A stretch of DNA of 64,000 nucleotides from Ignavibacteriales bacterium (GTDB lineage Bacteria > Bacillota_I > Bacilli_A > RF39 > UBA660), in the NCBI GenBank assembly GCA_050259235.1, contig JBLNAG010000001.1:86640-150639 (forward strand). The letters are read 5' to 3'. How positions within the stretch are numbered: position 1 is the first letter of the stretch; each line of letters starts with the position of its first letter. Of the stretch, positions 2,213 to 64,000 are shown in pieces. Under the pieces are notes generated by a model. It was not told the DNA's origin. It saw only the letters and a list, made by a program, of their open reading frames with translations, and searched no databases. The translations under genes and the position numbers were made by a program.

Positions 2213-3584
2213 TTATACCTAAATGTTTAATAATGGCACTTGCTATACCATCAATATATTTATTTTGATTGTTTGTAAGATTATCAATATCAACTTTATT
2301 TTGAACATAACCTAATTCTAAGATATATGCTTCCATTCCAACATTGCTAAAACGATATGGATTTTCTATTTTATCATCATTATCACCATCAACATATGAT
2401 CCAGTCATCATACCGCCTGTTTCGCGAATCATGTAGTAATATGGAGTTTTAGTTGTAATAGTAGTATAAGGTTTTTGCTCCTTCTCTACTCTTTCTTCGT
2501 TATAATCAGTTATTTCAGCATTGGTAAAGGTTCTTGTATATATGCCGTCAGTAATGTAATTATGTTTGTTAGTAGAATAATTAGTACCAGATGCATTTTT
2601 AACACTTTCTGCTAATTCTTTAGCAAACGTATAATCAATGTTATTTGGTGTATATAATTCTAATCCATTTAAGTCATATGAATAACCACTATTTAAATGA
2701 ATTGAAAAGACAAATTTAGCATTTAAATTATACCCAGTAGTAACACGACCATTAGTGCCATATTCTACTACTTTTTCACTGCTCTTAACATCAGTCCAAC
2801 TAAGAGCTACTTTTAGGCCATAACTTTCTAACTTTTCCTTTAATGCCTTACTATATTTAACAGTAAAATCTGTTTCACATGGTACTGTTGAACGATAACA
2901 TGCACCAGGATCTATACCACCATGTCCTGGATCTATAACAATATCATAAATGCTTTCACTATCAGATTTATCAATAGCAAAACTAATAGTATTTAAATCG
3001 TTATTTGAGTCAATTGCAATTCTATATTTATTTCCTATTGGATAATACTCAGTATTTTTATATGTTGTTGTATTGTTCAATAAATAATACTTACTTTCAT
3101 CGTGTTTATAAAAAACCTTTAAAAAAACATAGTAATCTTTTATATCAAAGTTATCTAAATTGATACCATTATTTAGTTTATCCCCTACTACAAAACTTAT
3201 ATTATTTCCTTCAATATTAGTTTTTAAGTCGTAATATTGATCTTCTCCATCGTATAAAACTAATTTAGCATTTTCAATCTCTAAAGTTGGATATAATATT
3301 TCAATACCCGCAAATTTTTCACTATGTGCATTAACACTATTAGTTAGAGATATACTACCTGACATATTTAAATGATTACCATATATATATATATTATTAA
3401 TATTAACTATTTCTTCTTCAATATTTAATTTATCCTCTTCGCTTTTACTTAAAAATGAAGGTACTTCATTTTCATTTTTATTTACTACTTCTGCATAAAA
3501 GCTACCAATTATCAATATAACTATAATTATAATTCTCTTTATCATTCGCTGTATTCCCTCTTTCTGGAATAAGTACATCCACAA
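2196..3584 (-). CDS. N-acetylmuramoyl-L-alanine amidase (Amidase_3/MurNAc-LAA) with N-terminal membrane anchor
   Basis: DIVIDPGHGGIDPGA and FSIHLNS motifs typical of Amidase_3 (CwlD/AmiC type); hydrophobic N-terminus. Confidence 0.8.
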   Translation of the reverse strand: MWMYLFQKEGIQRMIKRIIIIVILIIGSFYAEVVNKNENEVPSFLSKSEEDKLNIEEEIVNINNIYIYGNHLNMSGSISLTNSVNAHSEKFAGIEILYPTLEIENAKLVLYDGEDQYYDLKTNIEGNNISFVVGDKLNNGINLDNFDIKDYYVFLKVFYKHDESKYYLLNNTTTYKNTEYYPIGNKYRIAIDSNNDLNTISFAIDKSDSESIYDIVIDPGHGGIDPGACYRSTVPCETDFTVKYSKALKEKLESYGLKVALSWTDVKSSEKVVEYGTNGRVTTGYNLNAKFVFSIHLNSGYSYDLNGLELYTPNNIDYTFAKELAESVKNASGTNYSTNKHNYITDGIYTRTFTNAEITDYNEERVEKEQKPYTTITTKTPYYYMIRETGGMMTGSYVDGDNDDKIENPYRFSNVGMEAYILELGYVQNKVDIDNLTNNQNKYIDGIASAIIKHLGINENNN

Positions 3585-4165
3585 TAATCTTGGCGATATA
3601 GTTGATATTTTTTAGATAGTTCTATTGATTTTTTATATCCATCATTCTTTTTAAAATCACTATATAAGTACTTAATTTTATATTCATTTTCTAGATTTTT
3701 ACCAATGTTGTTTAGTACACTAGCATTTTTATACGGACTAATTGATAAAGTAGTAGTAAAGTAGTCAAAATTTAATTCTAAAGCTTTTTTTGCAGTTTCT
3801 TCTAATCTAAGATTGAAACATTTAAAACAACGCTTTCCGCCTTCCTTTTCTTCTTCTAAACCCTTAATCATTTCTTCATATATATTATTATCATAATTTC
3901 CTTCAATAATTTTGACATCATTATTAAATTCATTTACAAATCTATCAAGTTCAATAATTCTTTTATCATATTCTTCCTTTGGTGCAATGTTTGGATTGTA
4001 AAAAAATAAACTAATATTAAAATAACTAGAAAGATATTCCAATACGTAACTACTACATGGTGCACAGCATACATGTAACAAAAGTTTTGGTTTGTAATCT
4101 AATTTTTTTATTTCATCGATTGTCTTATTTAATATTAGTTGATAATTATCTTTCATATACAACAC
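3542..4165 (-). CDS. queH: Epoxyqueuosine reductase QueH (DUF208)
   Basis: LLLHVCCAPCSSYV and KRCFKC...CGC Cys motifs characteristic of QueH. Confidence 0.8.
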   Translation of the reverse strand: MLYMKDNYQLILNKTIDEIKKLDYKPKLLLHVCCAPCSSYVLEYLSSYFNISLFFYNPNIAPKEEYDKRIIELDRFVNEFNNDVKIIEGNYDNNIYEEMIKGLEEEKEGGKRCFKCFNLRLEETAKKALELNFDYFTTTLSISPYKNASVLNNIGKNLENEYKIKYLYSDFKKNDGYKKSIELSKKYQLYRQDYCGCTYSRKREYSE

Positions 4166-4225
4166 CTATTTTTATTATATCACAAAATGATAATATGATA
4201 ATGCAAAATGTATTTAAATGTCTTA

Positions 4226-4840
4226 TTAATTATAATTGGAATATGCTTTAATAAATTCAATTAAAGAGTCACATATTTTTTTACATTTTTCTATAGCATT
4301 ACAATCTCTAAATTTGTGGTTAATTTCAATTTGAATAATATCAATATCATTATTTTCAAAAATATGTTTAGTTATTCCACCGCCGCAAAAAGGTTCATTA
4401 TATTTAATATTATTAATGCCATTACGATTAAAGCAATCTTTTAATGTATTTTGTGTATTTATATCAATCGTCATATTTTTTAAAGTCCCAAATTCAACAT
4501 CAAAATCTCTATCAGCAGCAGCACCATGAATATCAATTAATAATTTAATATTGTTTTTATTGATTTTATGATTTAATACCTCTTTAAATTCATCTAAATT
4601 AGTAGAATTAGAATCTACTCCATTATCAATTGATTTGATCATATAATAACTGTTAACAATATTTCCTACATACTGACATATGGCTGAAGTATAAGATTCA
4701 CCATATTTAATGCCATCTTCTTTTTGTTGTTCAACAGTATGTACAGCTGTTAGTATAACAGGTACTTTACCTTCTTTTATCATATATGAAAATGTTTTAA
4801 CATTATTCTCATAATCATTAATTGTTTTATTGAAATCCAT
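4226..4840 (-). CDS. Putative zinc amidohydrolase (N-formylglutamate amidohydrolase-like)
   Basis: Weak resemblance only: LTAVHTV and LIDIHG His motifs. Assignment is tentative. Confidence 0.3.
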   Translation of the reverse strand: MDFNKTINDYENNVKTFSYMIKEGKVPVILTAVHTVEQQKEDGIKYGESYTSAICQYVGNIVNSYYMIKSIDNGVDSNSTNLDEFKEVLNHKINKNNIKLLIDIHGAAADRDFDVEFGTLKNMTIDINTQNTLKDCFNRNGINNIKYNEPFCGGGITKHIFENNDIDIIQIEINHKFRDCNAIEKCKKICDSLIEFIKAYSNYN

Positions 4841-8122: not shown

Positions 8123-9331
8123 CTAAATTTTTCTTGTTAATACTTTTCCTTCAGAAAATTTACAGTCAGATGAGCATTCATAATCTGGGAAAGTACATCT
8201 TGCTCCTTTAGTATATTTGATAATATCATCTTTTAAAGGATGATTATTTTTCTTAAGAGCTTCTTGATATTTCAATAAATTAGCTCTAGTTTGATTACAT
8301 ACTTCTACTTGGACCGCAGAGCATAATCTTTCTTTGCATTTTAAGATAAAGTTATCATATGTTCCTCTTTCAGTAACGTCAACAAGAGTACCTTGAGGTA
8401 TAACATTTTCAATTGATTTTATATCATTTAACCATTCTTCAGTTAATTCTTTATTATCTAGGAGAATTGGTGGTATAAAGTATTCTTTAGTTTTAGAAAA
8501 CTTAAATTCATAACTAAGTGTTCTATGTCTTTGAGCATCAGCTAAATGAGCAAATGTTGCTTTATATTTAACACAATATGATTCTCCAAATTCTTCTACT
8601 TTATCACGTTTAGATAACAATGAGAAACTCCTATCTTTACGATTAGTTTGTAATCTATCATCTAAAACATTAAGTTTTGTAAAAATATCAATAAATTCTT
8701 TAAGATATGGAATTAATTTTTCTTCTAATTCACTAACAGGATTATTAATAATTCGTCTCATAAAGGCGACAACACGATTTAATTGTGCAAGGGGTATGGT
8801 ATGTATTAATCTTGTTGGCATAAATATAGTTACAAGATATCTGCAGTTTTCTTGTGCTAGTTTTTGTATTTTAAAATCTTTTAAAACATTACCATATTTT
8901 TCTTTAATGAGAGGCTTTAATATCTCCATCCATTTCATATATAATTGCTCTTCTTTTTCAGATATAACGGTATGATCAGTACCTACTACGATTGTATAGC
9001 GACCTGACTTTTCACTTGTATTATATTGTTTTTCATTATTTAATATCATAACTAATATCTTAGGAATGTTAACTATTTCAAAAGTAATATTTACGTGATC
9101 ATATACTGAATGGTGTTCATTTTCAATTGTTATTTTTTCACGCTTATTTGTTTGTTCTATAGGCTCATTTTTTAATTTTGACCACCCATCAGGTTCATAA
9201 CATTCTCCAGCTATTTTAGCACTAAAGCTAATAGCTTCTTTCAAATCAAAACCAATGATTTCTCCAGCTTCATTTCTCTTTAAAAATGGTGTGTTAGGTA
9301 ATAGTTCAACCTTCATTCTTCCTTCTTCCAT
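8123..9331 (-). CDS. ThyX (Thy1/FAD-dependent thymidylate synthase) family-like protein, atypical
   Basis: MKVELL start, HHSVYDHVNITFEIVN and SEKSGRY match the ThyX core, but the first RHR motif is replaced by NNE. A single RHRTLSYE motif occurs later. Length is 402 aa against ~220 typical, with a Cys-rich C-terminus. Confidence 0.45.
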   Translation of the reverse strand: MEEGRMKVELLPNTPFLKRNEAGEIIGFDLKEAISFSAKIAGECYEPDGWSKLKNEPIEQTNKREKITIENEHHSVYDHVNITFEIVNIPKILVMILNNEKQYNTSEKSGRYTIVVGTDHTVISEKEEQLYMKWMEILKPLIKEKYGNVLKDFKIQKLAQENCRYLVTIFMPTRLIHTIPLAQLNRVVAFMRRIINNPVSELEEKLIPYLKEFIDIFTKLNVLDDRLQTNRKDRSFSLLSKRDKVEEFGESYCVKYKATFAHLADAQRHRTLSYEFKFSKTKEYFIPPILLDNKELTEEWLNDIKSIENVIPQGTLVDVTERGTYDNFILKCKERLCSAVQVEVCNQTRANLLKYQEALKKNNHPLKDDIIKYTKGARCTFPDYECSSDCKFSEGKVLTRKI

Positions 9332-9408
9332 AAAAACCTCCTACATATCATATGTTCGGTATCCTACCTTTTTAATTGTACCACATAATAAAAAAAATTG
9401 ACATATTT

Positions 9409-10281
9409 TTATGCAACTTTTTTAATACTTAAATTATTTAACCAACTTAGTTCATGTAAATCAATGTTTTCTTGTTTAATAATATTTTGATTTTCAGTTC
9501 CGTGATAATCACTTCCCCCACTTATTAACAATTTATGTTTATAGCAAAAGTCAATATACTCTACTGTTTCTTCATTGGAGTGAATTGGATAGTAGCACTC
9601 TACTCCATCAATATCAGTATTGGCAAATAAATCACCTATAAAAGCAATCTTATCATTTATTGTTTTATATTGACCTGGTTGAGCAAGAAATGCAAGTCCT
9701 CCAGCTTCGTGAATTTTATTTACTACCTCTTCAGATGTAATTGCTAAACTTTCTTCTGAAACATAAAATGGACTATTCTTATCACAAAATGTTTTACGAT
9801 AAAAAGTACTAGCATTACTTAGAATATTTGCACCTAATATTTGAACATTATGATCATAATACTTACGAAGTAAATCATATAATACTGATCCTGCCCATTC
9901 TCCAGGTTTAAGTGCATATTCATCATACTTTAATCTTAAAGATTTAGATACTTCTATTCCTTTACTGTATGCATATTGTTGGAATGTTATAATTTTCATT
10001 TTATTGCTATTTAAATATGATTTTATAATTTCAGGATCAATATTTATTCCTAATATTTCAATTGGCAATCCCTTATGAATACATTTAACTTCAACCCCTT
10101 GAATTAATTTGCCAGTATAATATTCTTCAATATTAACCCCTTTTAATTTATCATAAACATTAACGGTATCATGATCAGTAATAGAAGCAATTCTTACTCC
10201 ATTAGCTTCTAATTTTTTTAATAATTCAATCGGCTCTAAAATGCCATCAGAACAATTAGTATGTAAGTGCAAATTTATCAT
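9409..10281 (-). CDS. PHP-domain metal-dependent phosphoesterase
   Basis: MINLHLHTNCSDG and ITDHDT motifs of the PHP family. Confidence 0.75.
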   Translation of the reverse strand: MINLHLHTNCSDGILEPIELLKKLEANGVRIASITDHDTVNVYDKLKGVNIEEYYTGKLIQGVEVKCIHKGLPIEILGINIDPEIIKSYLNSNKMKIITFQQYAYSKGIEVSKSLRLKYDEYALKPGEWAGSVLYDLLRKYYDHNVQILGANILSNASTFYRKTFCDKNSPFYVSEESLAITSEEVVNKIHEAGGLAFLAQPGQYKTINDKIAFIGDLFANTDIDGVECYYPIHSNEETVEYIDFCYKHKLLISGGSDYHGTENQNIIKQENIDLHELSWLNNLSIKKVA

Positions 10282-10282
10282 C

Positions 10283-10711
10283 TTTCATCCTCTTTTCATA
10301 AAATATCTACTATCAGTTTCGTCTATGATTTTAAAATCATATTTTTTATATAAATTGATTGCCTTATTATCTTTATAAACCCATAAATATATTAGTTTAT
10401 TTGTCTTTATAATATTATTAATTATATTTGAACCAATTCCTTTGTTTCGATACAAATTTTCAATATATATTTCATCTAATAATTAATAATTTACCATCGT
10501 CATAATCTCTTAATAAGACACAACCACATATAGTATTATTTAATATAATAATTTTATAATCTTTTAAATACTTTGATGTATTTGTCTTAACATAATTAAT
10601 TATCTTTTCTTTATCATCAATATTTTTATTATATTCAAAGATAGTTTTGAACTTATATTTAATTAAAATATCAATATTTTCTTTAGTAGCTTTAATTAAT
10701 TTATAATTCAT
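10283..10711 (-). pseudogene. GNAT acetyltransferase interrupted by a frameshift (or sequencing error)
   Basis: The track ORF 10472..10711 encodes only the GNAT N-terminus. Own translation downstream in another frame gives LDEIYIENLYRNKGIGSNIINNIIKTNKLIYLWVYKDNKAINLYKKYDFKIIDE, which is GNAT motif A (Q/RxxGxG) plus the C-terminus. Confidence 0.5.
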
Positions 10712-10740
10712 TTTACCACCAACCTCATTATAACAAAAAA

Positions 10741-10759
10741 ATCTAGTAAAATACTAGAT
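10741..10759 (-). terminator. Copy 1 of a repeated palindromic terminator element (AACAAAAAAATCTAGnnnnnnCTAGATTT)
   Basis: ATCTAGTAAAATACTAGAT hairpin; on the minus strand it is followed by a 7-T run. Downstream of the GNAT gene. Confidence 0.6.
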
Positions 10760-10764
10760 TTTAT

Positions 10765-11196
10765 TTATAAATATAGATTATATTTCACGCTATTCATTTT
10801 TACAAAACCCATTTTTTCATATAGGTGATGAGCGGCATAAGCACTATCAAGACAAGTAAGATAAATTGATTTATAGCCATAGTCTTTAGCATAATCAATA
10901 ATAAATTGAAATAGTTTTTGAGCTATTTCTCTTCCTCGATACTCTTTTAAGACCGCCACATTAAAGATTTCTAATGCTGGTTGAAATGAAAAAGTAAATA
11001 AATCAATTTTATAAAATGTTGCACTGCCAACTATCTTATTATCTTCTTTAGCAACAACAACTTCATAATTGCCATTTTCTGAATAATTACTCATATATTG
11101 TTCAATGTCATTACTACCATCAAAACATTCATCAATTAATTCCTTATATAATTTTAGATCATCATATTTTAATCTTTCAATAGTCACATCTATCAC
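10765..11196 (-). CDS. GNAT family N-acetyltransferase
   Basis: VLKEYRGREIAQKLF motif A and 143-aa length. Confidence 0.8.
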   Translation of the reverse strand: MIDVTIERLKYDDLKLYKELIDECFDGSNDIEQYMSNYSENGNYEVVVAKEDNKIVGSATFYKIDLFTFSFQPALEIFNVAVLKEYRGREIAQKLFQFIIDYAKDYGYKSIYLTCLDSAYAAHHLYEKMGFVKMNSVKYNLYL

Positions 11197-11220
11197 CTAT
11201 ATTTATTATAACAAAAAAAT

Positions 11221-11238
11221 CTAGCCTATACTAGATTT
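11221..11238 (-). terminator. Copy 2 of the same palindromic terminator element
   Basis: ATCTAGCCTATACTAGAT with flanking AACAAAAAAA and TTTAATTACT; downstream of mntH. Confidence 0.6.
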
Positions 11239-11266
11239 AATTACTCTAACTATAAGCCCATTTTTA

Positions 11267-12580
11267 TTATACATTTCCAGTAAATGTTAGATATAGTAAT
11301 ACAACATTCATAGTTATAATAGTTAATGAAATCAACCATCCGAGAAATTTAGTAAATGGTTTATTTACAAAACTTCCCATTATATCTTTACGATTAGTAA
11401 TTTTTAGCATTGAAATAATGGCGACAGGTAAAACAAAACTTAAGCATACTTGACTCATTAATAATGCTTTCATAGGATTCACACCTATTAAAATAATAAT
11501 TATTCCAGGAAGCATAGTTATTATTCTTCTAATAAATACAGGTATTTTTAAATCAATAAATCCATCCATGATTGTTTCACCTGCCATTGCTCCTACAGAA
11601 GATGATGAAAAACCAGATGCTAGCAGTGAAGCTCCAAAAGCTCCACTTGATAATCCCCCTAAAAGAGGTTGAAGTGAACGATGTGCTTGTTCTATAGAGT
11701 TAACAACTATTCCACTACTATAGAAGACTGAGGCTGATACAATTACCATTGCAGCATTAACAATAAAAGCAATATTCATAGCAAAGAAAACATCAATTTT
11801 TTCCATGAATAAATGTTTTTTCTTTTCTGCTATCGTTTTACCGCCATTACGGCATTGTACTAACTCAGAATGCAAATATATAACATGTGGCATTACTGTT
11901 GCTCCAAGCATACCTACTGCAATTAAAACGGCCTGCCCATTTGGTAGAGATGGTAATAAGGTATGAAGTGCTACTTGAGGCCAATCTGGGCGAGCTAGAA
12001 ATAATTCTATTGTATAAGCTCCACAAATTACGGCTATTAATAGTGTTATAACGATTTCAACTACTCTTTGGCCATATTTTTGCAAGTAAACAATCATAAA
12101 TGTTACAATTGCCGTTAATATGACTGAATAAGATAATGAAATACCAAATAATAAATAAAAACCTAATACCCCACCTAAAAATTCAGCCATTGTAGTAGCC
12201 ATTGCTGCTAGAGTTGCCACGATATAAAAGAACCAATTTAATTTCTTTGAATATACCTTTCGACACATTTGGGTTAAATTACGACCCGTAACTATACCCA
12301 ATTTAGCAGACATTATTTGTAGAAATATAGCCATTAAATTACTCCATAATATAACCCATATAAGATTATAATTAAAAATAGAGCCTCCACTAATATTAGT
12401 AGCAAAATTACCAGGATCAATATAAGCTACACTAACAATAAAAGCTGGGCCTAAATATTTAAGTCCCATCTTAATTTTACTTATTATACTATTGGTTTTA
12501 ATTTCAGCCTTTCTAATATTAATTTCTATACCATTTAACATAGTAGTATCCTCATTCATTATTACACCTTCCACATTCAA
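11267..12580 (-). CDS. mntH: Nramp-family divalent metal (Mn2+/Fe2+) transporter MntH
   Basis: DPGNFATNISGGS (Nramp DPGN motif) and 11-12 TM helices. Confidence 0.9.
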   Translation of the reverse strand: MNVEGVIMNEDTTMLNGIEINIRKAEIKTNSIISKIKMGLKYLGPAFIVSVAYIDPGNFATNISGGSIFNYNLIWVILWSNLMAIFLQIMSAKLGIVTGRNLTQMCRKVYSKKLNWFFYIVATLAAMATTMAEFLGGVLGFYLLFGISLSYSVILTAIVTFMIVYLQKYGQRVVEIVITLLIAVICGAYTIELFLARPDWPQVALHTLLPSLPNGQAVLIAVGMLGATVMPHVIYLHSELVQCRNGGKTIAEKKKHLFMEKIDVFFAMNIAFIVNAAMVIVSASVFYSSGIVVNSIEQAHRSLQPLLGGLSSGAFGASLLASGFSSSSVGAMAGETIMDGFIDLKIPVFIRRIITMLPGIIIILIGVNPMKALLMSQVCLSFVLPVAIISMLKITNRKDIMGSFVNKPFTKFLGWLISLTIITMNVVLLYLTFTGNV

Positions 12581-50994: not shown

Positions 50995-51873
50995 CTATTC
51001 AAATACAAAAGGAATACCACCATTAGGTGGACAAGTATTATTAGTACTTATTGGAAGACAATAAATAAAATATTTTATTCCTTCTTGATAATTCTTTAAA
51101 TTAATATTGATATCTTTTGCTTCATCAACGTGTAACTCAAAAGCATCATCTATTACTTCTTTATTATCTAAGTAGTTAATTGTTCCTGCTCCACTAATTA
51201 ATTTATTTCCTTTATTAGCTAAATTAACATTGATTAAGTGTTGATTATTTAGTACATCTTTATTACTTATTAGTTTAATTTCTAGATCATCTATTCTTTG
51301 TTTCATATTAGTAGTAATATAAACAATAACTTCTCTAGTTAAACTTTTCTTATTACCATAATAATCTGAAACTTCATAAGTTAAATTATATATACCAGGA
51401 GTAGTAATATCAACATCCCCAACAACGTTTACTTTAGTGTTACTTACATTTATTTCATAACCAGGATCAGTAAATTTAGTATCTTTTTTTACTAAAAGTT
51501 CTTCATCACCTTTTAAAGTAAGTGCAATATCTTTTTCTTCAATAGTATCAGGTACTAATATTTTTACCCACATTGGTGAATATATTGAAGCAATATATCC
51601 TTGAATACCGTTTTTAGTTTCAATTTTATACCATAAATAGTTATCATCAAAACTAAAATCTTTTATTGTATATACTTCTCCTTTATTAATAACCCCTATT
51701 TTCTTAGAATCAATAGTAGCATCTTCTCTAATATTAATTGAATCAGTTATTACCTCAAATTGATAAACACTATTATTAATATCATTTGTTTGATCTTCAT
51801 TAATATTAATAGTTTCCTTTTTAGAACAACCACTAATTAATATCAAAATTACTAATATTATTACTTTTTTCAT
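50995..51873 (-). CDS. Putative lipoprotein
   Basis: Lipobox ILISGCS after a hydrophobic leader; beta-rich C-terminus. Confidence 0.5.
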   Translation of the reverse strand: MKKVIILVILILISGCSKKETININEDQTNDINNSVYQFEVITDSINIREDATIDSKKIGVINKGEVYTIKDFSFDDNYLWYKIETKNGIQGYIASIYSPMWVKILVPDTIEEKDIALTLKGDEELLVKKDTKFTDPGYEINVSNTKVNVVGDVDITTPGIYNLTYEVSDYYGNKKSLTREVIVYITTNMKQRIDDLEIKLISNKDVLNNQHLINVNLANKGNKLISGAGTINYLDNKEVIDDAFELHVDEAKDININLKNYQEGIKYFIYCLPISTNNTCPPNGGIPFVFE

Positions 51874-56149: not shown

Positions 56150-56322
56150 AAAAAGCCCCGGATAATCGGTAGCCAATAACGACAAAACCTGTAAGTCCAG
56201 GTGGGCATCACATTACTAATTTTAGGATTCTTATATAAAATAAGCTTTCAACACCATCAGTAAATTAGATTCCCAATCGTTTAAAATATAGTGGTTTTTC
56301 TTAGAAGCAACCGTATTATCCA
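56150..56322 (-). ncRNA. ssrS: Probable 6S RNA (SsrS/BsrA-like)
   Basis: Own promoter on the minus strand (GTGACA-17nt-TGCTATAAT at 56332-56360). ~175-nt transcript whose 5' end CCUGGAUAAUACGGUUGC pairs with its 3' end GCUACCGAUUAUCCGGGG, a long terminal closing stem. Internal hairpin ACCUG-GACUUA-CAGGU; ends in GGGGCUUUUU. Lies immediately upstream of tcdA (yrvM homolog), as B. subtilis 6S-1 does in the aspS-yrvM intergenic region. Confidence 0.5.
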
Positions 56323-56394
56323 GGTACTTATATTATAGCATAATTATATGTTAATGTCACTACTAACAATGATAAATATTTTTAAATAAAGAAT

Positions 56395-58425
56395 TTATAA
56401 ACCTGTACCTACTGCCAAGACAGCACGGAAGGAAACGGTAGTATACACAGTACCATCAGACATACTGAAACCAAATGCCCCAGCAGTTCCTCCAAGGTTG
56501 TAATCACGACCACGGATAAATAATGGAAGACTAGCATAAGCCATATAAGCATAATCATTAAACCATGCAGTTGCACCAGTTCCAGTAGAACTTATCTCAT
56601 ATACTCCATCACCTTTTACATTTATTGCGTTAGTATAGTTTATAGCTTGATCATCAGTTGTTATTGTATATACATCTTTATATTTGGCAGCAGCATTCAA
56701 AATACTACTTGCAAATGTCGTTAAATTAGCATTTCCATTATTTACATATGCTGAAGTGTTTTCACAAGCCCCACCGCTTGTATCGTATATTCCATAAATA
56801 TTTCCCGTTGTACTTGCTTTTACACCATTAATTGTATCGTAGGTTCTTAAACAACCTGTAGTTGCAGCAGAAATAGCACTATCTCCAGCACAACCTGTTG
56901 TATAATTATTAGCTGGATTTATCCATATCTCTTCAGTATTTTTACCATAAATAGATTTACTTAAATATATCATTGCTCCCCATTCAATATTTTTCATTAA
57001 ATGTGTATCAATACCAGTTCCGGTTGTTCCCCAACCATATCGACTGTTTGTTTCCATGTTACGAGAAGCAGTGAACATATTTGATGCTGTTGTACTACGA
57101 AGAGATACTACATTTGGTTTAAAGTCTACTGCTGCAGTTGTACCACTTGCTTCAAATTTTGCCACCCATATTCCAGTTAATTCTGTAGTTCCAAAGGTGA
57201 AAGCTGGATGATTAGTCCATTTATTATTTGAAGCATTAGCTGTAGTACCAGTATCAATAGCTCCTATAACACTACTATTCCAATTATCATTGGTGTTTTT
57301 TGTAAATTGTATTTCTATTGTTCCAGCGGTATTAGTATGCCATCCACTTGATATTTTATAAACAAATCTTGGAATCCAAACCCAAAATGAACCATCTGAT
57401 GTTTTAGCATTTGCCCACTTCTTAGAATCATAGTTATACCAATCTGGATCACTTGAAGTAGTATTTACCCAACTTGTACCATTCCATTTTATAGGTGTCA
57501 TTCCTGTTGCTAATGCAGGAGAATTAACATAAGAGTTTCCTACAGTAATTGTACGTTTACCAGTAGCAACATTACCACTACTATCTGTTACTTTATAAGT
57601 TAAATAATATGTACCTGGTAAAACACTTAAATTACCAGTGATTTCAATTTTACTTGTTAAATCACCATCATAATTATCAGTTGCAGTAGCACCTGCTCTA
57701 GCATTAAATGTTAATACATCAGTTGAATTCAGATTAACATTACTTGGAACTACTAAATTAGGTTTAGTTCTATCACTTACCACTACTGTTCGAGTAACAG
57801 TTGTTTTATATCCATTATCCGGATCAGTTACTTGATATTTTACAGTATAGCTACCAAATTGATTAGTATTAATAGTACTTCCATCTCCACTGATGGTTGT
57901 TACTACATTTGATGCAACAATTACATTTCCTTCGCTATCTAAAGCTGTTACTCCTGGATCAGTATATGTATTCTTTATTTCAACATATAAAATTGCACCA
58001 CCGTTCAACATTAATATAGGTGCTTCAATATTAATCTCAGCTGTTCTAGTAGGAGTTCCCGTATCAGTTAATATTGCATATTGAAAACCATCGCTTTTCT
58101 TTGTAATGGTAAGAAACATATCATTTGGAAATAGTTCATCAGTTAAAGGATTCAATATATCTTCGCTAACGTAATCACCTTGTTTTAATTGAAACATTGT
58201 TAATGTAATTTTTTCTTCATTTTCAGATGGTAAATAAAATAAATTATCTGTTGCCCATTCTTTTAGACCTGATTCTATATTATTAATTTGTGTTTCATAT
58301 AATTTTTGTTTACTATTTTTAATATTTTTTTCTACTGTAGGAAGTGCTATTAAAACAATTAGTCCTAATATACTAATTACTCCTAATAGTTCAATTAAAG
58401 TAAATGCATTCTTCTTCATTAACAC
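56395..58425 (-). CDS. Giant modular type IV pilin-like protein (676 aa): class III signal, pilin-like N-domain, two DUF5011 Ig-like domains, conserved W-rich ~330-aa domain
   Basis: N-terminus M(L)MKKNA|FTLIELLGVISILGLIVLIALP (prepilin motif, Glu+5). YTDPGVTALDSEGN and ATATDNYDGDLTS are DUF5011 hallmarks. Probable true start is ATG two codons in, giving MKKNAF. Confidence 0.7.
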   Translation of the reverse strand: MLMKKNAFTLIELLGVISILGLIVLIALPTVEKNIKNSKQKLYETQINNIESGLKEWATDNLFYLPSENEEKITLTMFQLKQGDYVSEDILNPLTDELFPNDMFLTITKKSDGFQYAILTDTGTPTRTAEINIEAPILMLNGGAILYVEIKNTYTDPGVTALDSEGNVIVASNVVTTISGDGSTINTNQFGSYTVKYQVTDPDNGYKTTVTRTVVVSDRTKPNLVVPSNVNLNSTDVLTFNARAGATATDNYDGDLTSKIEITGNLSVLPGTYYLTYKVTDSSGNVATGKRTITVGNSYVNSPALATGMTPIKWNGTSWVNTTSSDPDWYNYDSKKWANAKTSDGSFWVWIPRFVYKISSGWHTNTAGTIEIQFTKNTNDNWNSSVIGAIDTGTTANASNNKWTNHPAFTFGTTELTGIWVAKFEASGTTAAVDFKPNVVSLRSTTASNMFTASRNMETNSRYGWGTTGTGIDTHLMKNIEWGAMIYLSKSIYGKNTEEIWINPANNYTTGCAGDSAISAATTGCLRTYDTINGVKASTTGNIYGIYDTSGGACENTSAYVNNGNANLTTFASSILNAAAKYKDVYTITTDDQAINYTNAINVKGDGVYEISSTGTGATAWFNDYAYMAYASLPLFIRGRDYNLGGTAGAFGFSMSDGTVYTTVSFRAVLAVGTGL

Positions 58426-58511
58426 CTCTATCTTATATAGAAATTATATAATTTATTACATTACCTCTTTTTTCAAATTGATTAAATCTTATTTTTCAAT
58501 AAGTATATTAA

Positions 58512-60806
58512 TTATTGACATACTTCTTCAAAATAATTTATATTTCTAATAGCTGTTGCTACATTCCCTGATTTATCTGTCACAGTATAAGTTACTGTGT
58601 GCGTATCATAAACATCTTCTACTTTTTGAATTTGACTTGTTAGATCTCCATCAACATTATCAATAGCTGTTGCTCCAGCATCAATATAATTGAGTTGACA
58701 TACGTGGAAAGGAACAGGATTATCACCAAGTATAGTTATTACCGGAGGGGTTGTATCTGGTGAAGTCGGTATTACTCCTGGAGTTGATACTAGAATAGGA
58801 CGGAAACTATGATAAGTACCACCATTACCATTGTAATAGCTAAAATTGAATACACCTGCACTGCCATTGATATTGTAAAGACCACCACGTATGAACCATG
58901 GAGAGGTACTATAAGCTGTTCTAGAATAAGTTCCATACCATGAATTTACATCACTAGCCCCACCGGAACTGCTTGTTTCATAGATGGCATCACCTTTTTT
59001 ATTAACTGCTAAGGCATAATTGTTATCCCAATTGTCAGTTGCACCAACAGTATAAATATCTTTATATTTGCTATCTGCGTTTATGATACTATTACCATAA
59101 GTTGTTAAACTAGCATTACCATTGTTAATATAAGCAGCTACATATTCATTTGCTCCACCGGACATATCATATATGCCATAAATATTGCCTGTTGTACTTG
59201 CTTGTTGTCCATTGCTTGTATCGTATGTGTACTGACATCCTGCATAAGATGAAGCTGTTTCACTTGCCCCTGCACAACCAGTAATATATGTGTTACTGTT
59301 ATTTAACCATATTGCTGCATTTTTACCATAAATTGATTGTGATAAATATGTTGCTGCTCCCCATTCTATGTTCTTAGCCATATGAGTATCGATATCATTT
59401 CCACTCGTTCCCCACCCATATCGACTATTAGTTTTCATGTTAAGAGTAGCTATAAACATATTACCAATAGTTATACTGCGTAGTGATGAAACATTTGGCT
59501 TAACATCAACAGCACTTGTTGTTCCACTTGCTTCAAATTTAGCCACCCATATTCCAGTTAATTCCGTAGTTCCAAAGGTGAAAGCAGGATGATTAGTCCA
59601 TTTATTATTTGAAGCATCAGCTGTAGTACCAGTATCAATACTTCCTATAACACTACTGTTCCAATTATCATTGGTATTTTTTGTGAATTGAATATCAATT
59701 GTTCCTGCAGTATTTGTATGCCATCCACTTGATATTCTATAAACAAACCTTGGTATCCATACCCACATCGATCCATCTGCTGTTTTAGCATTGGCCCATT
59801 TTTTAGAGTCATAGTTATACCAATTTGAATCACTTGAAGTGGTATTTACCCAACTTGTACCATTCCATTTAATAGGTGTCATTCCGGTTGCTAATACAGG
59901 AACATTAACATAGGAATTTCCTACAACAATTGTACGCTTACCACTAGCAACATTACCACTACTATCGGTTACTTTATAAGTTAAATAATATGTACCTGGT
60001 AAAACACTTAAATTACCAGTAATTTCGATTTGACTTGTTAAATCTCCATCATAATTATCAGTAGCAGTAGCATCAGTTCTTGCATTAAAAGTAAGTACAT
60101 TAGCAGGAGTTAATGTGATATTACCTGGAACTACTAAATTAGGTTTGGTTTTATCGCTTATTGCAACCGTACGAATCACGGCTGTTTTATACCCATTATC
60201 TGGATCTGTTACTTGATATTTTACTGTATAATTACCAAACACATTAGTATTAATAGAAGTTCCGTCTCCACCAATAGTTGTTACTACATTTGATGCAGCA
60301 ATTACATTTCCTTCGCTATCTAAAGCTGTTACTCCTGGATCAGTATATGTATTCTTTATTTCAACATATTGAAATGGTGAACCATTTATTATTAACACTG
60401 GTGCATCAGGATTTATTACAGCAGTTCCTGTTCTTGTACCAGTATCAGTTAATATTGCATATTGAAAACTGTTGCTTTTCTTTGTAATGGTAAGAAACAT
60501 ATCATTTGGAAATAGTTCGTCATTCAAAGGATTTAATATATTCTTTTCAATATATCCCCCTTGTTTTAATTGATACAACGTCAAAGTAACCATTTCGCCA
60601 TTTTCTGAAGGTAAATAAATTAAATTATCCGCCACCCAATTCATTAGTCCTGATTTTATATTACTAATTTGAGCTTCATATAATTTTTGTTTACTATTTT
60701 TAATATTCTTTTCTACTGCAGGAAGTGCTATTAAAACAATTAGTCCTAATATACTAATTACTCCTAATAGTTCAATTAATGTAAATGCATTCTTCTTCAT
60801 AAACAC
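58512..60806 (-). CDS. Giant modular type IV pilin-like protein (764 aa), paralog; third DUF5011 domain at the C-terminus
   Basis: Same N-terminal prepilin motif and domain order; C-terminal extra Ig-like domain IDAGATAIDNVDGDLTSQI. Confidence 0.7.
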   Translation of the reverse strand: MFMKKNAFTLIELLGVISILGLIVLIALPAVEKNIKNSKQKLYEAQISNIKSGLMNWVADNLIYLPSENGEMVTLTLYQLKQGGYIEKNILNPLNDELFPNDMFLTITKKSNSFQYAILTDTGTRTGTAVINPDAPVLIINGSPFQYVEIKNTYTDPGVTALDSEGNVIAASNVVTTIGGDGTSINTNVFGNYTVKYQVTDPDNGYKTAVIRTVAISDKTKPNLVVPGNITLTPANVLTFNARTDATATDNYDGDLTSQIEITGNLSVLPGTYYLTYKVTDSSGNVASGKRTIVVGNSYVNVPVLATGMTPIKWNGTSWVNTTSSDSNWYNYDSKKWANAKTADGSMWVWIPRFVYRISSGWHTNTAGTIDIQFTKNTNDNWNSSVIGSIDTGTTADASNNKWTNHPAFTFGTTELTGIWVAKFEASGTTSAVDVKPNVSSLRSITIGNMFIATLNMKTNSRYGWGTSGNDIDTHMAKNIEWGAATYLSQSIYGKNAAIWLNNSNTYITGCAGASETASSYAGCQYTYDTSNGQQASTTGNIYGIYDMSGGANEYVAAYINNGNASLTTYGNSIINADSKYKDIYTVGATDNWDNNYALAVNKKGDAIYETSSSGGASDVNSWYGTYSRTAYSTSPWFIRGGLYNINGSAGVFNFSYYNGNGGTYHSFRPILVSTPGVIPTSPDTTPPVITILGDNPVPFHVCQLNYIDAGATAIDNVDGDLTSQIQKVEDVYDTHTVTYTVTDKSGNVATAIRNINYFEEVCQ

Positions 60807-61006
60807 CTAACAAACACTTCTAGTAAAATCCTCAGGTAAGACCAATATTATATATAAGTGTATTATATAATTTTTGCCAAAATATGTCAATGTTTGAAAA
60901 AGTACAAAAAGAAGTAATAAAAATAAAACCCCAATTCAATTTTATATTGAATTAAGGTTCTATTCTCTTAAAATTATTTTTTTCAATTAATGTAATATTT
61001 AAACTT

Positions 61007-63577
61007 TTATGGTTCTAACCACACTTTATATAGTTTAGTTGTACCATTTTCTAATCCTCTTACATTAAGAACATATTTTATATAAAAATTTCCATTCATA
61101 CTTGAAATATCCAAACTAGTAATATTCCTTGAACCACTTGGATAAGTACCACAATTTATAGTAATCTTGGGTTCATCAGGTTGAGCAACTGTTTTTGATG
61201 CACTTATTATCAAATTCATGTAATTACAACTACCAGACTGTGAGGAATCAATCTTTAAAGTACTATAATCTGTTAAATCAACCGGATTATCAGTGACCCA
61301 AGTAGCAGATCCCACAGTATAATCATCACTACTTGATACAGTGGTAAGAAGATCTGTCGCCTCTTTTGTTCTAGTAACTGTTACATACGCACTACTTGTT
61401 GCAGAACCTACAACCCAAGCACTACTGTTAACCCCTTCATTATAAAGATAAGTAATTGCAGGTGGAGGTGTGATTATTAAAACTGGACGGAAACTAGAAT
61501 AATAATCAACATTTCCTCCTGTAGGACCAAAGGCAAACGTGTCTGCTAAATAGCCTTCTTCCCAATAATGGCCGCGAGTAAACCAAGGATTGTTTAAGCC
61601 AGGCATAACAGACTCTCCTGTAAACCATGAACATTCACCACACCCTGTCGGCCCAAAATTACTTGTTTCGTAAATTGCATCGCCTTTATGGGAAATAGTT
61701 AAAGAATAATTTTCATTTTCATCAGCACTACTTCCTTTACTATATATATCCTTATATTTTACATTTGCATTGATTATTGAAGAACCATATGTATTTAAAC
61801 TACTACTAGCATTATCTACATAAGCAGCTACATATTCGAATGTGCCACCACTCATATCATATATACCATATATTGTTCCTGTGGTACTTGCATTTACCCC
61901 ATTTGTTGTTTCATATGTATTTCTACACCCACCAATACTATCATTAGCCGAGTTACTTGCACAGCCTGTTGTTACTGGCTCGGAATCATTAATCCATACT
62001 TCACCATTTTTGCCATACGTTGATTGAGCTAGATATGCTACTGCTCCCCATTCAATATTCTTTATTAAATGAGTGTCTATTTCTGTTCCACTTGTTCCCC
62101 ATCCATATGTACTGTTGGTCTCCATATTTCTTGATACTGTAAAAGCATTACCTATTTTAAGACATATCCATGGGGATGCATTTGGTATTATTTTAACTGT
62201 TTTTGTTGTGACGTCATCAGCAGCAACACAACCATATCCATTAGATGCTACACCTGAAGCTGCTGTAGCTTCAAACTTAGCCACCCATATTCCAGTTAAT
62301 TCTGTAGTTCCAAAGGTGAAAGCTGGATGATTAGTCCATTTATTATTTGAAGCATTAGCTGTAGTACCAGTATCAATACTACCTATAACACTACTGTTCC
62401 AGTTATCATTAGTGTTTTTTGTGAATTGTATATCAATTGTTCCTGCAGTATTTGTATGCCATCCACTTGATATTTTATAAATAAATCTTGGAATCCAAAC
62501 CCAAAATGAACCATCTGCAGTTTTAGCATTTGCCCATTTCTTAGAATCATAATTATACCAATTTGGATCATCAGCAGTTGTATTTTTCCATGAACTTCCA
62601 TCCCATACAATTGGTGTCATTCCTGTTGCTAATTCTGGAGCATTAACGTATGTACTACCAACAGTTATTGTTCTTTTTTTAGAAGTAGTGTTATTACTAC
62701 TATCTGTTACTTTATATGTTAGATAATAGGTACCAGGTATTATACTCAAATCACCCATAATTTCAATTTGACTTGTTAAATCTCCATCATAATTATCAGT
62801 TGCTGTAGCACCTGTCCTTGCATTAAAAGTAAGTGCTTCAGCTGGAGCTAATACAATATTACCCGGTACTACTAATGATGGTTTAGTTTTATCACTTACA
62901 GTTACTGTACGAGTGACTGTTGTTTTATATCCATTATCAGGATCAGTTACTTGATATTTTACTGTATAAGTGCCAAAAGCACTTGTACTAATACTACTAC
63001 CAGAACCACTAATAGTTGTTATAACATTAGACTGAGCAATTAAATTACCTTCACTATCTAAAGCAATTACTCCAGGATCAGTATATACATCAAATATTTC
63101 AACACGTTGCATTGGTGAACCATTTATTATTAACACTGGTGCATCAGGATTTATTACAGCAGTTCCTGTTCTTGTACCAGTATTAACTAATACTTCATAT
63201 TCAAAAGTATTCAGTTTTTTAGTAATAGTTACTAGCATATCATTAGGAAATAATTCGTCTGTTAACGGATTCAATATACCTTTATTAACATATCCCCCTT
63301 GTTTTAATTGATATAATGTCAAAGTAATTATTTCGCCATCTTCAGAAGGTAAATAAGATAAATTATCAGTTGCCCATTCCTTTAGACTTGATTCTATATT
63401 ACTAATTTGTGTTTCATATAGTTTTTGTTTACTATTTTTAATATTTTTTTCTACTGCAGGAAGTGCTATTAAAACAATTAGTCCTAATATACTAATTACT
63501 CCTAATAGTTCAATTAATGTAAATGCGTTTCTTTTCATAAGCACCCCTTTAACATATATTTCTATAAATTTTATCAA
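61007..63577 (-). CDS. Giant modular type IV pilin-like protein (856-aa ORF; likely 843 aa starting at the ATG at 63538), paralog with internal insertion and ~150-aa C-terminal extension
   Basis: RBS AAAGGGGTG then ATG AAA AGA AAC GCA TTT gives MKRNAFTLIELLGVISILGLIVLIALP. Same DUF5011 pair and W-rich domain; insertion TAASGVASNGYGCVAADDVTTKTVKII... Confidence 0.7.
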   Translation of the reverse strand: MIKFIEIYVKGVLMKRNAFTLIELLGVISILGLIVLIALPAVEKNIKNSKQKLYETQISNIESSLKEWATDNLSYLPSEDGEIITLTLYQLKQGGYVNKGILNPLTDELFPNDMLVTITKKLNTFEYEVLVNTGTRTGTAVINPDAPVLIINGSPMQRVEIFDVYTDPGVIALDSEGNLIAQSNVITTISGSGSSISTSAFGTYTVKYQVTDPDNGYKTTVTRTVTVSDKTKPSLVVPGNIVLAPAEALTFNARTGATATDNYDGDLTSQIEIMGDLSIIPGTYYLTYKVTDSSNNTTSKKRTITVGSTYVNAPELATGMTPIVWDGSSWKNTTADDPNWYNYDSKKWANAKTADGSFWVWIPRFIYKISSGWHTNTAGTIDIQFTKNTNDNWNSSVIGSIDTGTTANASNNKWTNHPAFTFGTTELTGIWVAKFEATAASGVASNGYGCVAADDVTTKTVKIIPNASPWICLKIGNAFTVSRNMETNSTYGWGTSGTEIDTHLIKNIEWGAVAYLAQSTYGKNGEVWINDSEPVTTGCASNSANDSIGGCRNTYETTNGVNASTTGTIYGIYDMSGGTFEYVAAYVDNASSSLNTYGSSIINANVKYKDIYSKGSSADENENYSLTISHKGDAIYETSNFGPTGCGECSWFTGESVMPGLNNPWFTRGHYWEEGYLADTFAFGPTGGNVDYYSSFRPVLIITPPPAITYLYNEGVNSSAWVVGSATSSAYVTVTRTKEATDLLTTVSSSDDYTVGSATWVTDNPVDLTDYSTLKIDSSQSGSCNYMNLIISASKTVAQPDEPKITINCGTYPSGSRNITSLDISSMNGNFYIKYVLNVRGLENGTTKLYKVWLEP

Positions 63578-64000
63578 AATAAGATATTTTTAGTATTAAA
63601 AAAGAAGTAATTTTACTTCTAACTACTTCAAATACAAAAAATATTAAATATTTTTATCACAATCTATACTTTATTTGAACATTTATTTCCTTATTTGCTA
63701 TGCTCATCAAGTAATTAGTGCAATCGGTATTTGAGTTGTCAAAATTCATTCGTTAGATAACACACCTATATATTCTTCAAGTTCACGTTTTGATATATGA
63801 GGAAGTTATTTTAATATAAAAATTAAATAATTTCTTTACCAATCTCTATTAGTGTTGTTCTTTTATTATATATAAATACATTATATAATTTATCAATATA
63901 TAAGTCAACAATCTATACAAAAAAAAAGAAGTAATATTACTTCTTTGCTTGTTCTAAAACATTAGTAACTGCTTCATAATACTTGTCAACTGAAATAGTT

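Follow-up and report, generated by a model that had tools for sequence, protein, structure and literature searches.

Three consecutive genes on the minus strand of contig JBLNAG010000001.1 raise the question of what a tandem array of long, pilin-like proteins with nearly identical beginnings is for, and whether its members are exchanged for one another. The window that was analysed comprises 64 kb of this 295-kb contig, and every negative result given for the window applies to those 64 kb. The open reading frames (ORFs) extend from 56395 to 58425, from 58512 to 60806 and from 61007 to 63577, and are designated genes A, B and C, respectively, in ascending coordinate order. With a probability of roughly 0.7, their products are modular type IV pilins that display three alternative lectin-fold adhesin heads, most likely as low-abundance or tip subunits, and the scaffold beneath these heads is homogenised by gene conversion. 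The trio are additional members of an established class, the modular type IV pilins, and belong to a family that is large, catalogued and unstudied.

Pilin module, stalk and head of the three proteins

The original prediction, which was made from the DNA alone, described three consecutive minus-strand paralogs with a common domain order, each beginning with a class III prepilin signal that has Glu at position +5, and in these respects it was correct. The likely start codons are the ATGs at 58419, 60800 and 63538, which closely follow ribosome-binding sites of the GG(T/G)G type and give proteins of 674, 762 and 843 amino acids (genes A, B and C, respectively); these can be aligned over approximately 690 residues. 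All three start with MK(K/R)NAFTLIELL..., that is, MK(K/R)NA↓FTLIELLGVISILGLIVLIALP with Ala at -1 and Glu at +5, and all three pass the cut-off of the prepilin N-terminal domain TIGR02532 (18.6, 18.3 and 17.8 bits versus 16.3). For protein A, 60 homologs gave an AlphaFold model with a predicted local distance difference test score (pLDDT) of 92.1, in which an alpha1 helix of 51 residues (8-58) leads into a small beta-sheet (residues 70-117), with two immunoglobulin (Ig)-like domains and a large domain at the C-terminus beyond it. For protein C, the model is confident over residues 1-692 and the same as that of protein A up to that point, and in both models the helix of residues 8-58 and the strands of residues 70-117 are present at pLDDT 83-96. 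The pilin fold with an alpha1 helix that had been proposed is thus borne out by structure prediction: residues 1-125 are predicted to form alpha1 on an antiparallel beta-sheet. The family profile also matches solved pilins, including the S. sanguinis PilE1 structure (8pfb) over residues 14-126 and hence its globular part (E 6e-11), Geobacter PilA-N, Thermus PilA5 and others (entries including 9egp and 8qqj). Classification of the proteins as type IV pilin-like is supported by the class III signal, the predicted fold and these matches, and PF16403 Ig-like domains and a lectin-fold domain follow the pilin module, as in other modular pilins.

The Ig-like domains belong to PF16403 (Bact_surface_Ig-like, formerly DUF5011), of which there are two matches each in proteins A and C and three in protein B, as had been foreseen. 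Protein C has both the insertion and the C-terminal extension of approximately 150 residues that had been described: the alignment places a 17-residue Cys-containing insertion within the head, which is also present in the second head domain of a relative (P0004), and the extension (residues 693-843) has no Pfam or other domain match and is modelled at pLDDT 25-58. A 292-residue lipoprotein gene next to smc (50995-51873, minus strand) has a segment resembling the Ig-like domains of the pilin genes, and includes a weak nucleotide match at 51352-51399.

The conserved C-terminal domain, approximately 380 residues in length, had been recognised as common to all three proteins (at about 330 residues), but its identity, which is the key to function, had been missed. 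No Pfam match was found for the last approximately 380 residues of any of the three window proteins. The domain is a C-type-lectin (CLec) fold of the formylglycine-generating enzyme (FGE) subclass, homologous to the variable proteins of diversity-generating retroelements (DGRs), and Foldseek agrees on this identity. PF03781, the FGE-sulfatase fold, matches 16 of 60 family members, weakly. FGE requires a catalytic pair of cysteines in its active site. The 60-member alignment has 30 invariant and approximately 70 nearly invariant columns; Trp, Tyr, Gly and Asp predominate among the invariant ones, and Cys occurs in neither group. An FGE-type (SUMF1-type) enzyme is unlikely because no cysteine is conserved in the family, which differs in this way from FGE, EgtB and PvdO, and the similarity of the head to the non-enzymatic DGR variable protein TaqVP is much higher than to the enzymes of this fold; the enzymatic reading was rejected. 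The head is closest to the class of TaqVP (5vf4), TvpA (2y3c) and Mtd (1yu0). Variable proteins of DGRs that have CLec folds are well known (PMC6328139); fusion to a type IV pilin module, which is present in the window proteins, is not described for those that have been solved.

Proposed assembly into type IV filaments

By this reading, the class III signal and the canonical pilin module would insert each protein into a filament, the two Ig-like domains would act as a stalk, and the head, a CLec fold of the same domain family that DGRs hypermutate in relatives, would be the ligand-binding adhesin module, with extra C-terminal domains in proteins B and C only. Processing by a prepilin peptidase, incorporation into the filament and an adhesive function would all be expected of such proteins. 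The modular type IV pilins of Streptococcus sanguinis, PilB with a von Willebrand factor A module and PilC with a lectin module (PMC8179133; PMC9934059), are similar in that non-pilin modules, presumably displayed on the filament, are attached to a class III signal and a small pilin module, in a monoderm host. The window proteins differ from them in carrying a CLec/FGE-fold head, closest to DGR variable proteins, behind a stalk of two Ig-like domains, in being encoded by three tandem mosaic copies, and in not being near the genes of the machinery.

Among the genomic neighbourhoods of relatives, the evidence for a type IV pilus link at the family level is good. The family gene of L047 follows a PilC-like gene, PilD and a 573-residue prepilin that shares the Ala(-1) leader of the window genes, and its own leader ends in Gly. 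In L064, a PilD gene lies 640 nt downstream of the family member; a type IV pilus operon is found 6 kb from that of L067, and small prepilin genes near family members in L006 and L050. In an uncultured Clostridium metagenome-assembled genome (MAG), positions 94-11095 of L074 comprise a complete type IV pilus operon, of which the last gene encodes a 520-residue family member. The order of this operon is PilMN-like, a 140-residue pilin, peptidase A24 (PilD), two small pilins, PilB (T2SSE), PilT (T2SSE), PilC (T2SSF) and then the family member; its pilins have the N-terminus GITLI(A/S)LV, which does not contain Glu at +5. Four matches to the PilB-type ATPase motif G[PS]TGSGK[ST]T near relatives were rejected as candidates, being ABC exporters according to Pfam.

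Several observations count against assembly into a filament. As had been remarked of pilus assembly genes in general, a prepilin peptidase, an assembly ATPase, a platform protein and a small major pilin are all missing from the window, and the genes of most relatives are orphans with housekeeping genes around them. The scores of PF07963 (20.2-20.9) fall just under its gathering cut-off of 21.2 in all three proteins, and the residue at -1 is Ala, not the usual Gly, a substitution that recurs in L035, L047, L050 and L028. Filament incorporation and a tip location would follow from the analogy with S. sanguinis PilB and PilC (PMC8179133). Orphan placement is common for minor pilins, but it leaves space for a role outside the filament.

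Such a role would be that of surface lectin-like adhesins for which the prepilin-like N-terminus is only a signal and membrane anchor, or a release signal. The missing machinery and the orphan relatives would fit this alternative, as would the very large cargo (up to 4,500 residues in relatives) and the 26% of family members that have no recognisable pilin N-terminus, which is absent from all of the viral ones. It is nevertheless unlikely: a full pilin fold is predicted beyond the hydrophobic helix, Glu at +5 is conserved, family members end the complete pilus operon of L074 and adjoin PilC and PilD in L047 or PilD in L064, and characterised modular pilins of similar design polymerise into pili (PMC8179133).

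The variable end of the head and diversity-generating retroelements

The search for DGRs covered 80 genomic loci of relatives from GTDB and five viral loci. A reverse transcriptase (RT) together with a template repeat (TR) and variable repeat (VR) pair was found in five of the 80 (L035, L043, L044, L063 and L068). In these loci a repeat, approximately 150 nt long, of the 3' end of the family gene lies within approximately 0.1-0.45 kb downstream of the gene, and the RT is an RVT_1 protein of approximately 340 residues with the DGR motif IGNYTSQ (split between two ORFs in L068). The VR is the last approximately 150 nt of the head domain, and 88-100% of the mismatches between VR and TR are at adenines of the downstream copy, the TR, a pattern that marks TR/VR pairs of DGRs. 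Four of the five viral loci also have an RT, accompanied in three by a VR/TR pair. DGR-diversified type IV pilin-like proteins apparently exist, because the targets in L035 and L044 carry canonical prepilin N-termini, above the TIGR02532 cut-off. No dedicated study of type IV pilins as DGR targets was found in the literature; a 2024 survey mentions a 'GspG-type pilin' once, among rare VR-holding domains.

The TRs of the relatives encode ...RGGNYNNGSNAG(L/V)FNFNNNNG.SNSNNSFRP..., and the window proteins can be matched to this sequence one residue at a time (for example, RGGLYNINGSAGVFNFSYYNGNGGTYHSFRP of gene B). The alignment defines a VR-equivalent segment in each gene, in which 16 positions correspond to AAY codons (Y being a pyrimidine) of the TRs. 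Across the family these positions are the most variable columns of the domain (entropy of 3.38 bits, versus 1.41 for the rest of the domain, P=1e-11), and not one of the 16 is identical across proteins A, B and C. Codons of the form NNY (N being any nucleotide) occupy 15 of the 16 in gene A and again in gene B (P ~0.001 each, given a background of 0.55), and 11 of the 16 in gene C, which is not significant. As expected of DGR variable proteins, the window heads have a CLec fold whose C-terminal end carries the variable segment.

An RT and a TR are what the window does not have, compared with DGR systems. A profile made from the RTs of four relatives matched no DGR RT in any of the six translated frames of the window, even at E<=10, and no TR-like repeat was found in the window by BLAST or by a scan for adenine-specific mismatches, which returned only matches of one paralog to another. 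Active hypermutation of all three genes, or at least of genes A and B, by a DGR elsewhere in the genome, through remote TRs and mutagenic retrohoming, would be in keeping with the inclusion of proven DGR targets in the head family, with the VR-like richness of the gene B segment in Asn, Tyr, Ser and Gly, with the extent of the contig beyond the part examined, and with the 15 of 16 NNY codons in genes A and B, which fit either descent from or exposure to adenine mutagenesis. The NNY excess can also be explained by a binding surface rich in Tyr, Asn, Asp and Ser, however, and in every DGR-positive relative the target gene has its TR and RT within approximately 0.1-2 kb. A single TR could not suffice for the three genes, because their VR-equivalents differ at many positions, including many that are not adenines; the codons ATG in gene A and TGG, GAA, TTA and ACA in gene C, at AAY-equivalent sites, cannot be produced by adenine mutagenesis of AAY, so that gene C and in part gene A are incompatible with a purely adenine-directed process. 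The GC content of the VR-equivalents is 0.37-0.44, compared with 0.49-0.54 in active VRs, and the segment does not reach the C-terminus in proteins B and C. Hypermutation from a remote DGR is therefore quite improbable, and we prefer to regard the three heads as a fixed repertoire. The three genes would then provide three fixed binding specificities, because the sites randomised by DGRs in relatives are those at which the paralogs diverge most.

In the usual view, the binding properties of type IV pili vary by way of the major pilin or of adhesins of the PilC/PilY1 type. Many uncultured Firmicutes of guts and digesters apparently graft onto a pilin module the C-type-lectin head, nature's scaffold for massive variation; some relatives evidently hypermutate this head by means of a DGR, and others, like the genome of the window, hold several hard-wired variants in tandem. 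This provides a testable link between type IV filaments and DGRs, along with candidate adhesins for organisms not represented in culture. The link between type IV pilins and DGRs at the family level is a by-product of the analysis and the more novel outcome; the result for the window itself is more modest.

In Bacteroides, the tip adhesins of type V pili are diversified by DGRs, according to a paper that makes no mention of type IV pili (bioRxiv 10.1101/2024.11.15.621889). The resemblance lies in a pilus subunit with a distal CLec head, a diversified ligand-binding surface and a host among gut bacteria; that system is of type V and assembled by lipoprotein-based strand exchange in diderm Bacteroidota, whereas the window system is of type IV, with a prepilin signal and alpha1, in low-GC Firmicutes. 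A wider proposal is that the trio belong to a widespread, unstudied system by which uncultured low-GC Firmicutes put DGR-type C-lectin heads on type IV pili, and that the heads of the window are either rewritten by a remote DGR or 'frozen' products of one, with conversion maintaining the scaffold. This proposal is unlikely; if it is true, the system would be the type IV counterpart of the DGR-diversified type V adhesins of Bacteroides, and no earlier case of a type IV pilin hypervaried by a retroelement would be known.

Mosaicism, family context and gene layout

The near-identity of the 5' ends and of internal blocks, which first drew attention to the locus, is confirmed: over the first 135 nt the pairs are 93-98% identical (synonymous identity 0.90-0.95 in all pairs), and internal exact runs between paralogs reach 99 nt. 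The resemblance is blockwise and not uniform, as had been suspected. In 90-nt windows of the codon alignment, pairwise nucleotide identity ranges between 0.47 and 0.99, and which pair is closest depends on the part of the gene: B and C in columns 361-450 (0.91, versus 0.69 for A and B), A and B in columns 451-540 (0.94), and A and C in columns 991-1080 (0.96). Informative sites that set two paralogs against one are clustered, whether all sites are considered (z=6.5, p<1e-4) or synonymous sites alone (z=2.8, p=0.004), and in one tract shared by B and C, 26 of 26 synonymous codons are identical, compared with fractions of 0.53-0.61 for the other pairs. The blocks are limited to approximately the first 1300 nt (ending near column 1300), beyond which the 3' half is evenly divergent; homogenisation starts at the ribosome-binding site, and the regions upstream of it diverge. 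The mosaic is real, and since the closest paralog switches and the informative sites cluster beyond chance, gene conversion between the tandem genes is its best explanation. Conversion touches the conserved scaffold and not the variable ligand-binding end. Its effect would be to keep uniform the signal, the alpha1 helix, the Ig stalk and the beginning of the head, which make up the portion that must fit the assembly machinery.

A system of the pilE/pilS type consists of one expressed locus and silent, promoterless, 5'-truncated donor cassettes. The window resembles that of Neisseria in having several pilin paralogs, conserved 5' sequence and evidence of gene conversion, and differs from it in that every copy is complete and apparently expressible, no copy is a silent cassette, and the exchanged tracts are in the scaffold. 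Programmed antigenic or phase variation of this kind, in which recombination through the identical 5' blocks would switch the pilin variant, had been put forward in the original prediction and is highly improbable despite the tandem direct paralogs with near-identical 5' ends and the statistically supported tracts, given that none of the three genes lacks its start codon, ribosome-binding site or complete signal peptide (genes B and C also having consensus-like promoters), that 5'-truncated cassettes, inverted repeats on which an invertase could act and a neighbouring recombinase gene are all missing, that the variable 3' binding region has no block structure, and that the nearest relatives are only 56-62% identical.

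The description of the genes as giant or unusually large also fails, leaving an overall interpretation that was right about pilin-like, modular and mosaic proteins and wrong about their exceptional size and antigenic variation. Lengths among 252 collected family members have a median of 551 residues, 25% being at least 674 and 14% at least 843 residues long, and the largest family member exceeds 4,500 residues. Raynaud et al. 2021 (PNAS, PMC8179133) catalogued 1,219 modular pilins of 264 architectures, with sizes of up to 860 residues; the trio fall within this range, and in the top quartile of their own family. The trio are well-behaved members of a large family, neither unique giants nor a demonstrated switching system. 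One of the published architectures, IPR012902-IPR005532, is a pilin joined to a sulfatase-modifying-factor/FGE domain. Dataset S1 of Raynaud et al. 2021 holds eight proteins with this architecture (PMC8179133).

A word-indexed search returned more than 2,446 relatives, the closest of which, aside from the NCBI entries of the window itself, are those at 56-62% identity, and at least 587 relatives are present in GTDB species representatives. A HMMER scan of 1.84 billion cluster representatives with the head domain alone gave 3,730 matches at E<=1e-3 (2,725 at E<=1e-10), including proteins of 3,000-4,500 residues with several head domains. Nearly all of the relatives' records are titled as MAGs of uncultured Bacilli, Clostridia, Mollicutes or Tenericutes (three are labelled Muribaculaceae), and their genomes have a GC content of 23-30% and often several copies each. 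A pilin-type N-terminus is present in 74% of the 252 collected members. Tandem pairs occur in L016, L031 and L055, single genes being the rule. P0004 (L088, 5804-8782) has two CLec heads in one polypeptide, and P0121, P0124 and P0139 are further multi-head relatives; the proteins of 3,700-4,500 residues hold four or five full-length heads (seven to nine HMMER-matched stretches). Multi-head polypeptides may be fused versions of tandem arrays such as the trio. Viral relatives number five in 2.9 million viral contigs, and the pilin-fused form is evidently cellular, because all of these are without the pilin module; a viral origin of that form was rejected.

The features of the locus and of the DGR cassettes in two relatives are listed in Table 1. 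Pattern matching places the promoter-like site of gene B just past the terminator-like hairpin that ends gene C, and finds no terminator-like site in the 86-nt gap between genes B and A. By this layout, gene C looks like a transcription unit of its own, and genes B and A are probably co-transcribed. The promoter-like region of gene C is 78% similar to that of gene B (repeat D8).

Table 1. Coordinates of features of the three pilin-like genes in the window, and of DGR cassettes in two loci of relatives
Feature	Position	Strand	Basis or remarks
Gene A, modular type IV pilin-like protein, 674 residues (pilin module, two Ig-like domains, CLec head)	56395..58419	-	ORF, TIGR02532, PF16403 x2, AlphaFold model
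Gene A, predicted pilin module, residues 1-125 (class III signal MKKNA↓FTLIE, alpha1 helix 8-58, beta-sheet 70-117)	58045..58419	-	model secondary structure and family profile
Gene A, two Ig-like (Bact_surface_Ig-like / Big_3) spacer domains, residues ~130-295	57535..58032	-	PF16403, E 1e-25; matches 2kpn and Ig domains of chitinase MmChi60
Gene A, C-type-lectin / FGE-subclass domain, presumed ligand-binding head, residues 296-674	56398..57534	-	
Gene A, VR-equivalent, residues ~620-671	56407..56562	-	aligned to VR/TR of L035, L043, L044, L063, L068; GC 0.44
Gene B, 762-residue paralog, architecture of gene A with third Ig-like domain	58512..60800	-	ORF, profile matches, alignment
Gene B, third Ig-like domain, residues 683-751	58548-58754	-	PF16403
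Gene B, VR-equivalent (RGGLYNINGSAGVFNFSYYNGNGGTYHSFRP)	58782..58937	-	Asn/Tyr/Ser/Gly-rich; GC 0.37
Gene C, 843-residue paralog, same architecture with insertion and C-terminal extension	61007..63538	-	ORF, alignment, model
Gene C, 17-residue Cys-containing insertion in CLec domain	~62213-62263	-	alignment
Gene C, VR-equivalent	61469..61624	-	codon alignment
Gene C, C-terminal extension, ~150 residues (693-843)	61010-61462	-	alignment
Sigma70-type promoter candidate, perfect TTGACA-17-TATAAT, 62 nt upstream of gene B	60862..60890	-	pattern match only
Terminator-like hairpin and T-run downstream of gene C	60920..60966	-	pattern match only
Near-consensus promoter candidate (11/12), ~340 nt upstream of gene C start	63880..63908	-	pattern match only
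DGR cassette, locus L035, VR/TR/RT stretches	1880-2462 and 3450-4469		
DGR cassette, locus L044, VR/TR/RT stretches	8664-9417 and 10264-11298		

If the promoter-like site upstream of gene C is used, the transcript would have an AT-rich leader of approximately 340 nt (63539-63879, minus strand); no cis-regulatory family of Rfam was matched across the locus, including this leader. The only Rfam match at the locus is a full-length 6S RNA (RF00013, 77.9 bits, E 1.5e-14) at 56151-56329 on the minus strand, directly downstream of gene A.

The GC content of the window is 0.26, and the NCBI name 'Ignavibacteriales bacterium' clashes with this value, with the cell-wall and teichoic-acid genes and with the Bacilli, Clostridia and Mollicutes MAGs that supply nearly all of the relatives, which suggests that the host is a low-GC Firmicute and that the bin may be mislabelled. 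Read by eye, positions 1-49000, the greater part of the window, contain a very large gene cluster that encodes glycosyltransferases and enzymes of nucleotide sugars together with an ABC polysaccharide exporter and YfhO-like membrane proteins, and which from its gene content looks like a cluster for the biosynthesis of a cell-wall polysaccharide or teichoic acid.

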